From: Isurus oxyrinchus
Taxonomy: Eukaryota
Assembly: GCA_026770705.1 (NCBI GenBank)
Contig: JANJGN010000002.1
Coordinates: 74,462,001-74,526,000 of the forward strand
Reading direction: 5' to 3'
DNA length: 64,000 bases
Shown here: positions 16,693 through 17,734 of the stretch, piece by piece
Layout: every line of letters starts with the position of its first letter
How positions within the stretch are numbered: the first letter of the stretch is position 1
The notes under the pieces: model-generated
Database searches by the model: none
What the model was told of the DNA's origin: nothing
The model's input: only the letters and a program-made list of their open reading frames with translations
Program-made: the position numbers and the translations under genes

Positions 16693-16741
16693 GAAGTTAC
16701 TTTTTAAACCAAGACCAAAATCAGGCAGGGTTCTTTGAGTA

Positions 16742-16993
16742 AAATAAAAGCAAAATACTGTCGATGCTGGAAATCTGGAATAAAAATAAAAATAGCTGGA
16801 AAAACTCAGCAAGTCTGACAGCATCTGTGGAGAGGAATACAGCGTTAACGTGTTGAGTCCGAATGATTCTTCATCAGAACCCTTTCATGAGTTCTGATGA
16901 AGAGTCATTCGAACTCGACACGTTAACGCTGTCTTCCTCTCTACAGATGCTGTCAGACCTGCTGAGCTTTTCCAGCTAATTTTGTTTTTGTTT
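16742..16993. mobile_element. Palindromic double-hammerhead PLE derivative with ~16-bp TSD
   Basis: Arms ~16775-16880 and 16891-16996 are inverted copies; CTGATGA core on each strand; TSD cagggttctttgagta / cagggctcttagagta. Confidence 0.9.
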
Positions 16994-17734
16994 CAGGGCT
17001 CTTAGAGTATTTGTTTTAGTTATTTCAGTCATACAAAATCACAAAAAGCATTACAATGTTACTCATCACACATCAAGTTTACCCATGAATAGCTGAGTCA
17101 TGTATACCAGCAGGCATTAGTTTCAGCCACTGCCATGTTAGGTTAGCCAGAGTTTGGATTCGTTTTTTGATTTCTGAGACTTTAAAACTTTATCCCCCCA
17201 AACCCCCCCTCCACAGAAAGAACATAAGGGAACCTTACCTCCAGCATACATCAGGAAACTGTATACAGCCAGCTGTGATTTCACCGGGAGGCTATGCAGA
17301 AATTTTAGCCCATCGCCTTTCCTTTCAAAAGCTTACATTTTGGTAATAGTTTTTGTGTTTAAATGAACGGAAAATGAAATGCTTTTCCACTTGGACCACC
17401 CAGTTTCAGCATCAAGCACTGAGTCTTTGATTAAAACTCCCTTTACCAACAAAATGCTTTATACCCAACTCAGAACAACCCACAAATCCAGGCTGAAACA
17501 GGGTTGTTTCATTTTTCAAATCAATTATTTTAATTTTTCTTCTTGGGAGGGCCAGAAATTGCCCAAATTTACTATACAAGTCTCTTATAGCTAAATAAAA
17601 GCAGAAACTTTCCTGTAGTTATTCAAACCCAGAAACTGGATAAGAGGTAATAAATAAAATTACTGCGCCAACCAATGCCCCAAATAGGACTTTCATTTAT
17701 TCTACAGAAGGCTCTACACACAATCAGCCTGAGG

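Follow-up and report, generated by a model that had tools for sequence, protein, structure and literature searches.

The focal palindrome lies at positions 16726 to 17009 of the window, the whole 64,000-nt stretch of DNA analysed here, and consists of two inverted PLE pLTR arms enclosed by a single TSD. Each arm carries a hammerhead motif with a broken core, and the junctions of the family to which it belongs are heterogeneous. We regard it as very probable that this palindrome is a single, old and minimal inverted-pLTR PLE insertion, the mirror half of which was made during integration and the ribozymes of which are predicted to be inactive. A previous sequence-only reading of the same DNA had proposed a non-autonomous retrozyme or viroid-like unit; mutated cores, one motif per strand and differing junctions speak against that proposal. 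Statements cited from PMC3846280, PMC8557442, PMC2377424, PMC4209133, PMC6765202, PMC7229834, PMC11167929 and bioRxiv 10.64898/2026.07.22.740005 refer to the parts of these papers that were covered.

Structure of the focal palindrome

The left arm (16775-16880, sense on the minus strand) and the right arm (16891-16996, plus strand) are inverted, 106 nt long each and 90% complementary, with 11 mismatches, nine of them transitions, and no indels, and they are separated by a spacer of 10 nt (16881-16890). Arm mapping thus confirmed the two-arm inverted unit of ~250 bp with a 10-nt spacer that had been described before. A Penelope tail of 35-39 nt (16740/42-16774, minus strand) is attached to the left arm only and was absent from the earlier description; it corresponds to the sequence into which the family extends behind 16996, and the right arm is tailless. 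The TSD copies at 16726-16741 and 16994-17009 (plus strand) agree at 14 of 16 positions, as had been claimed (16 bp with two mismatches); the last 2 nt of the left copy overlap the commonest family tail end, and the first 3 nt of the right copy overlap the arm end. Their score was reached in 4 of 2000 position-constrained controls and in 29 of 300 under a looser control that allowed sliding by 30 nt, also into the AT-rich tail, and on both strands of the window only these two sites match the focal TSD at 13 or more of 16 positions.

Folded as RNA, the palindrome reaches -171.1 kcal/mol (z -23.5), and none of 200 shuffles was equally low, which supports the earlier expectation of a long hairpin from whichever strand is used, conditional on transcription. 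The insert is 252 bp long and has no ORF, hence not the RT-EN ORF of an autonomous PLE, and it is a PLE product in truncated form rather than an autonomous element. Inverted pLTRs, a one-sided tail of 30-40 bp and a TSD make up the published PLE layout (PMC3846280, PMC8557442), known from rotifer, fly and other PLEs (PMC3846280, PMC8557442, PMC2377424). The focal insert has head-to-head pLTRs, the one-sided tail, the TSD and hammerheads of the minimal type I, and the link to a GIY-YIG ORF is provided within the window by an arm of 78-80% identity that caps ORF 9244-9672, which supports the proposed origin of the arms from a PLE pLTR. An unrelated inverted repeat, distinct from the PLE arm, is present nearby at 16307-16411 (38 nt, 89%, 29 nt apart).

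Hammerhead motifs and their state

From the centre outward, each arm contains a stem I of 3-4 bp, CUGAUGA, one unpaired A, a stem II of 5 bp, the position of the GAAA box and a palindromic helix III of 4 bases. On the plus strand (16891-16927) these parts are stem I at 16891-93/16925-27, the core at 16894-16900, the extra A at 16901, stem II at 16902-16916 and helix III at 16920-23, with the site after 16924; the minus-strand motif occupies 16844-16880. The claim of CUGAUGA in both arms on opposite strands was therefore upheld by topology mapping. This identification was made by manual mapping of the topology and not by Rfam, a search of which at E up to 1 returned no hammerhead family and only a below-threshold match to the MIR5048 hairpin, which reflects any long hairpin.

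Both minimal type I motifs are broken. The plus-strand motif carries A14C at 16919 and has lost a stem II pair at 16912, and the minus-strand motif carries G12A (16854), A14C (16852) and a stem II mismatch at 16867, so that G12-A15.1 reads GACA in the right arm and AACA in the left. Contigs from five runs, DNA or unlabelled genomic, show A at position 14 of the family motif in 95-99% of the depth. Mutation of G12 or A14 reduces hammerhead activity more than 100-fold (PMC4075628). Because A14C is found in both cores and G12A in one, and because a stem II pair is lost in each, both ribozymes of the focal copy are predicted to be almost certainly inactive. The ribozyme reading is further weakened because the minimal type acts as a same-strand dimer, yet each focal strand has one motif without a same-strand partner; minimal PLE hammerheads showed no cleavage as single motifs (PMC4209133) and weak cleavage as dimers (PMC4209133, PMC6765202). 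The term "double hammerhead" used previously normally denotes two same-strand ribozymes that form such a dimer, and does not describe the focal layout. According to the fold calculations, forcing stems I and II inside the hairpin would cost 54.6 kcal/mol on the plus strand and 53.7 kcal/mol on the minus strand, while for nascent transcripts that stop shortly after the motif the penalty would be no less than 45 kcal/mol. Whichever strand is transcribed, the antisense arm would come first and would sequester the hammerhead motif. With A14C in both cores, a single motif per strand and a penalty of ~54 kcal/mol, the claimed working ribozymes in both polarities are not borne out. As a separate observation, position 14 (16919/16852) is A in only 78-92% in the putative RNA runs X20 and X18, which could be due to a few deep contigs or to transcribed copies favouring dead ribozymes.

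The two arms share rare changes at 16919/16852 and 16928/16843, where the family has the other letter in 95-99% and 92-96% of the DNA depth, respectively. Under a simple model, the coincidence of two such changes by chance has a probability of ~0.008-0.04, and this comparison of the letters supports a common source of the arms. Both changes are within 10 nt of each other and inside a difference-free stretch of 15 nt (16918-16932), so one later arm-to-arm conversion would also explain them. Consequently, the reported change of GAAA to (G/A)ACA in both arms (GACA/AACA) stands, and the single template deduced from it becomes one of two options, a common source or a later conversion.

Related copies and the PLE of the window

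A profile built from eight arms of the window detected 13 stretches there, whereas the reversed window gave no hit; the stretches comprise five fold-backs, two single arms, the PLE pLTR and tail-end pieces at 9684 and 49755. All of the fold-backs (11358, 16598, 25614, 33610) and single arms (17976, 18677) listed by the earlier reading were recovered by this profile. The copy at 11355-11524 has a long left arm, a short right arm and a junction of ~21 nt with a further inverted piece; that at 16600-16690 is an old short fold-back with its junction within stem II; that at 25606-25818 has a tail, an 8-bp TSD, a multi-fold junction and a short right arm; and that at 33603-33800 is an old fold-back, whose tailed left arm has lost its innermost part and whose right arm stops at the tailless end. 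The single arms are located on the plus strand at 17976-18079 and at 18675-18817, the latter having a tail, 96% identity to the PLE pLTR and an inverted stub of 7-8 nt at its 5' end. The TSD claimed for the 25614 copy proved real (CTTCAGCT at 25606/25811, its score being reached in 5 of 2000 controls), and a TSD search at the fold-backs 11358, 16598 and 33610 found none that was convincing. Immediately in front of its TSD, the right arm of the 25614 copy (25785-25810) ends a few bases from the position at which hammerhead cleavage is predicted.

Identities among the compared window copies range from 65 to 88%, and the palindromes belong to different subfamilies. The focal arms are 90% alike along their full length, compared with at most 82% to any other window copy. 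An arm's own partner is clearly its best match only in the focal copy (92% vs 77%); it is marginally so in three other fold-backs, and this fails for 25614.

The PLE on the minus strand at 8758-9672 is 5'-truncated and comprises a GIY-YIG fragment with an upstream Cx4CxxC, a 3' UTR and a hammerhead pLTR (8758-8856, core CUGUCGA). Its GIY-YIG frame (9244-9672) was recognized by Pfam (E 5.6e-05) and shows 62% identity to a protein of the whale shark, which points to a cartilaginous fish as the probable host; the fragment carries no RT. The presence of Cx4CxxC upstream of GIY-YIG conforms to the CX2-5CxxC motif defined for Neptune and Nematis elements (PMC8557442), a motif common to both groups, and together with GIY-YIG it supports the suggestion that the window holds what is probably a Neptune-type PLE. 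The same element had also been put forward as the parent of the palindromes. Since its pLTR shows 78-80% identity with the focal arms and 96% with the 18683 arm, this RT-less fragment appears, on sequence identity, to represent a sister subfamily of the focal arms, a relative and not the parent. The core of this sister subfamily (8758-8856, 18683-18817) is non-canonical, CUGUCGA or CUGUUGA (A6 to U), in an otherwise intact motif. Directly upstream of the truncated PLE and in the same orientation, 9684-9729 is a diverged fragment from the tail end of an older arm, next to which the PLE was possibly inserted.

A Pfam scan of 150 of 568 frames of at least 48 aa gave one DDE transposase hit and two below-cutoff hits, and no host gene was identified in it. 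The window contains a DDE_Tnp_4 (Harbinger-like) transposase remnant at 21882-22289 (Pfam E 3.1e-07), a second such remnant at 53244-53594, judged by eye from the reading frame, possible host exons at 50860-51015 (below-cutoff DUF7630 match) and 45539-45889 (protein-like frame), and a low-complexity tandem repeat of ~2 kb at 38783-40990 with open frames on both strands.

Abundance and junctions of the family

Contigs of seven public runs from two organisms (A and B) were mapped on the focal locus; depth in these data is not copy number, and overlapping contigs can count one locus repeatedly. In two DNA runs from organism A, the arm family was represented by 15,728 and 31,582 contigs. The spacer, read at position 16884, had a depth of 96.5 in run X4, 32 in X6 and 0 in two putative RNA runs, and the arm bins adjoining it had depths of 16,614 and 182,724 (X4) and of 5,903 and 83,304 (X6); the spacer thus has 0.04-0.6% of the adjoining arm-bin depth, and its amplification is below a detectable level. 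As a flank contig of the focal locus has a depth of 17.4, the spacer amounts to ~5.5 single-copy equivalents, overlaps and chance extensions included, and since this figure is not 1, a few sibling copies of the focal junction may exist. The unique flanks of the focal locus had little coverage, the right flank (17021-17180) having a depth of 0 in all four runs of this comparison, organism A included, and neither an empty site nor an orthologous copy of the insertion was seen among these contigs.

All five fold-back junctions of the window differ in position and filler. In the public contigs, at least 10 fold-back junctions ending in the right arm were found, and all those listed differ, nine of them coming from DNA run X4 (depth 12.9-26, roughly that of a single copy) and one from the putative RNA run X20. 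Three of the listed junctions recur in organism B at a depth of 5-8.3, which fits old orthologous single insertions. At the listed junctions the sense arms start at 16886-16894, without shared filler or common upstream sequence, a narrow range that is partly forced by a reference holding only 40 nt of the right arm, with ~25 possible starts. Joints not ending in the right arm and the "opposite strands" joints 16841-43/16925-27 were left out of this count, the latter because, with a reference that ended inside the right arm, an ordinary single arm produces the same signal. Young palindromes are under-represented, given that perfect palindromes interrupt contig graphs and that the reference copy has diverged; within this bound, the many copies with one junction and one length that mark a unit-amplified (MITE-like) element were not found. 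A unique junction in every palindrome was the outcome that the earlier reading itself had named as contradicting amplification as a unit, and this is the outcome in the window (five of five) and among the listed contig junctions. Pattern scans for paralogues gave no match in viral contigs and none in metagenome contigs. Among the matches listed, no RNA run contained the focal locus, which is not informative about its expression. A joint of 16821 to 16894, belonging to another locus, was observed in the putative RNA run X20 of organism A on a contig of depth 150.9, and some palindromes of the family may lie in well-expressed RNAs.

Formation of the palindrome

For the route by which the insertion was formed, we propose twin priming, to which, among the insertion products, we give somewhat less than an even chance. 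In this model, the element protein would make a staggered cut in the target, with the nicks 11-16 nt apart, and from each 3' end the 5' pLTR of RNA transcribed from a single source copy would be reverse-transcribed, one cDNA beginning at the tail-end start site and the other at the tailless start site. Both cDNAs would run to the RNA 5' end just before stem I, and their ends would be joined via a short filler, generating the order TSD, tailed arm, filler, tailless arm and TSD, after which the arms and the TSD would decay neutrally. The start point of the pLTR may be the 5' end of the transcript, since in the window PLE a TATA-like run is found ~32 nt upstream of the start point of the pLTR sense arm.

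The outer ends of the focal copy are consistent with this route. A recurrent outer end of the family at 16740-16746 was indicated by 501, 404 and 447 contigs that pass into unrelated flanks (X4), and a second one at ~16989-16993 by 248 contigs into unrelated flanks (X1), with 180 contigs continuing into the tail behind 16996 (X1). The focal left arm ends at the first of these family ends and the right arm at the second (16989-93), and two outer ends at two recurrent family ends fit priming from both nicks. The Anolis PLE protein cuts and extends both strands in vitro, and two internal RT start sites bound the tail (PMC11167929); in addition, a dimer is predicted for it, and ribozyme mutants still insert, hammerhead cleavage being dispensable (PMC11167929). 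Opposite-strand pairs of minimal hammerheads 100-700 bp apart have been described in Schistosoma (PMC4209133). As regards the subsequent decay, the TSD and the arms have diverged to about the same extent (2 of 16 vs 11 of 106, Fisher p 0.68), and changes preserving G-U wobble pairs are not significantly enriched in the arms (6 vs 3, p 0.51), so there is no sign of selection on the hairpin.

Several points weigh against twin priming. The in vitro support comes from a Poseidon element and not from Neptune, the twin-priming step is itself a proposal, and an identical palindrome would be expected if a single nick-primed cDNA snapped back, copied itself and was released by endonuclease resolution of the hairpin at the tail boundary. 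This snap-back alternative, the main rival of twin priming and in our view somewhat less likely, would give identical arms automatically and so explain the two shared rare changes, and it has precedents in the self-priming invoked for PLEs (PMC3846280) and in the ascription of the tail to endonuclease resolution (PMC8557442). It would also fit better three of the four other window fold-backs, which have short right arms or multi-fold junctions; repeated fold-back is suggested by the multi-fold junctions of the copies at 11358 and 25614, by the stub at 18675 and by a long filler among the contig junctions. However, the end of the focal right arm coincides with a recurrent family end and adjoins the TSD, for which snap-back would need an extra cutting step, and in PMC11167929 the two boundaries of the tail are assigned to RT start sites. 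An origin of the mirror symmetry after integration, from two independent single-arm insertions that landed back to back and were later homogenized by gene conversion, is very improbable. Single arms are abundant, and the two shared rare changes, lying within 10 nt in 16918-16932, are what one conversion tract gives, but the two arms lie within a single TSD (score reached in 4 of 2000 controls), and the arms are alike along their full length at a level (90%) that no other window copy approaches (at most 82%). Even so, the shared changes could be due to conversion between the arms of one insertion.

The remaining alternatives hold that the palindrome multiplies as a unit. It is improbable that the PLE protein re-mobilizes whole transcribed palindromes as a non-autonomous, MITE-like unit, with or without ribozyme activity. 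The frequency of fold-backs (five in 64 kb), the ~5 single-copy equivalents of the spacer in both organisms, pieces of runs X9 and X20 that reach 16883 and the finding that pLTRs suffice in cis for mobilization in trans (PMC3846280) would agree with such a unit; against it are the differing junctions, five of five in the window and all those listed in the contigs, the assignment of the window palindromes to different subfamilies at 65-88% identity, and a spacer depth of only 0.04-0.6% of arm depth, in which overlapping contigs recount single loci. We think it most improbable that the palindrome gives rise to a retrozyme or viroid-like RNA, with working hammerheads in both polarities that yield circles or unit-length RNAs. 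A recognizable hammerhead motif on both polarities, the very stable hairpin and the family sequence in putative RNA runs, including the junction of another locus at depth 150.9 (X20), are compatible with this possibility, but A14C affects both arms and G12A one, a stem II pair is lost in each, and one motif per strand provides no pair of cuts that could release a unit, single minimal motifs having failed to cleave (PMC4209133). Furthermore, the computed cost of the forced fold (54.6 and 53.7 kcal/mol for the whole unit, no less than 45 kcal/mol for nascent prefixes) would disfavour cleavage, and the non-LTR retrozymes consist of tandemly repeated units with canonical type I motifs (PMC7229834).

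The focal locus by itself is ordinary, an old scar of a family with tens of thousands of contigs. Tentatively, such stubs may be the smallest complete record of PLE integration, combining a dimeric protein, priming at two nicks on one source RNA, run-off at the hammerhead and joining. If this is true, the inverted pLTR, the tail on one side and the TSD would all follow from one mechanism, and the focal copy would show that a template with a dead ribozyme was mobilized in vivo. How PLEs form inverted pLTRs and tails is left as a question in PMC3846280, and the later steps were unvalidated in PMC11167929. With short, TSD-flanked palindromes in a vertebrate family of high copy number, the products of twin priming and snap-back become countable in assembled shark genomes. 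In addition, such hairpins, if transcribed, would be ready substrates for ADAR or Dicer.

Comparison with known systems

In the literature covered, which was mostly open access and seen by title or the start of the abstract, no report dealing with twin priming in PLEs or with the present shark family was found. EN+ PLE insertions such as Pen2a_Av share with the focal copy the head-to-head pLTRs, the single tail, a TSD of similar size and a variable inner junction (PMC3846280; PMC8557442), whereas the focal insert of 252 bp has neither an ORF nor a direct pLTR between its arms and belongs to a high-copy vertebrate family. The short helix I, the unpaired base between 9 and 10.1, the G10.1-C11.1 pair and the palindromic helix III are as in the minimal type I hammerheads of metazoan PLEs (PMC4209133). 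In the opposite-strand hammerhead pairs of the same study the motifs are 100-700 bp apart (PMC4209133), whereas the focal motifs are 10 nt apart and both have mutated cores. The Anolis Poseidon element PAc resembles the focal model in its two internal RT starts bounding the tail, in the cutting and extension of both strands and in not requiring cleavage, but it belongs to another clade, and the inverted product does not appear in the parts of the paper covered (PMC11167929). The start site of PAc is not homologous to the cut DNA (PMC11167929), whereas overlaps of 2-3 nt are seen in the focal copy.

The focal model also recalls an inversion process of another retrotransposon. In L1 twin priming, both target nicks prime cDNA synthesis, leading to an inversion, with each cDNA copied from a different part of the RNA. 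Priming from both nicks would thus be common to the two, but the focal arms would copy the identical part of the RNA.

Like the focal insert, non-LTR retrozymes are short, non-coding and PLE-derived, with a type I hammerhead and a TSD of more than 4 bp (PMC7229834; bioRxiv 10.64898/2026.07.22.740005). They are, however, same-strand tandem repeats that give rise to circular RNAs (PMC7229834; bioRxiv 10.64898/2026.07.22.740005), whereas the focal insert consists of two inverted arms, and the single motif on each of its strands is predicted to be dead. Of the features of a retrozyme, neither tandem repeats with at least two hammerheads on the same strand (one per strand here) nor a canonical intact type I hammerhead (minimal type with A14C in both arms) is present, and, given the core mutations and the computed ~54 kcal/mol, neither strand is predicted to hold the intact, foldable ribozyme of a viroid-like RNA. 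Hammerhead viroids carry ribozymes in both polarities within a self-complementary RNA. The focal palindrome shares with them the motif in both polarities and differs in its broken cores, its near-perfect hairpin, its nature as a TSD-flanked chromosomal insertion and the lack of any sign of unit replication. The focal element is a PLE insertion in the form of a truncated product, and it is neither a member of the retrozymes or viroids nor does it work like them.
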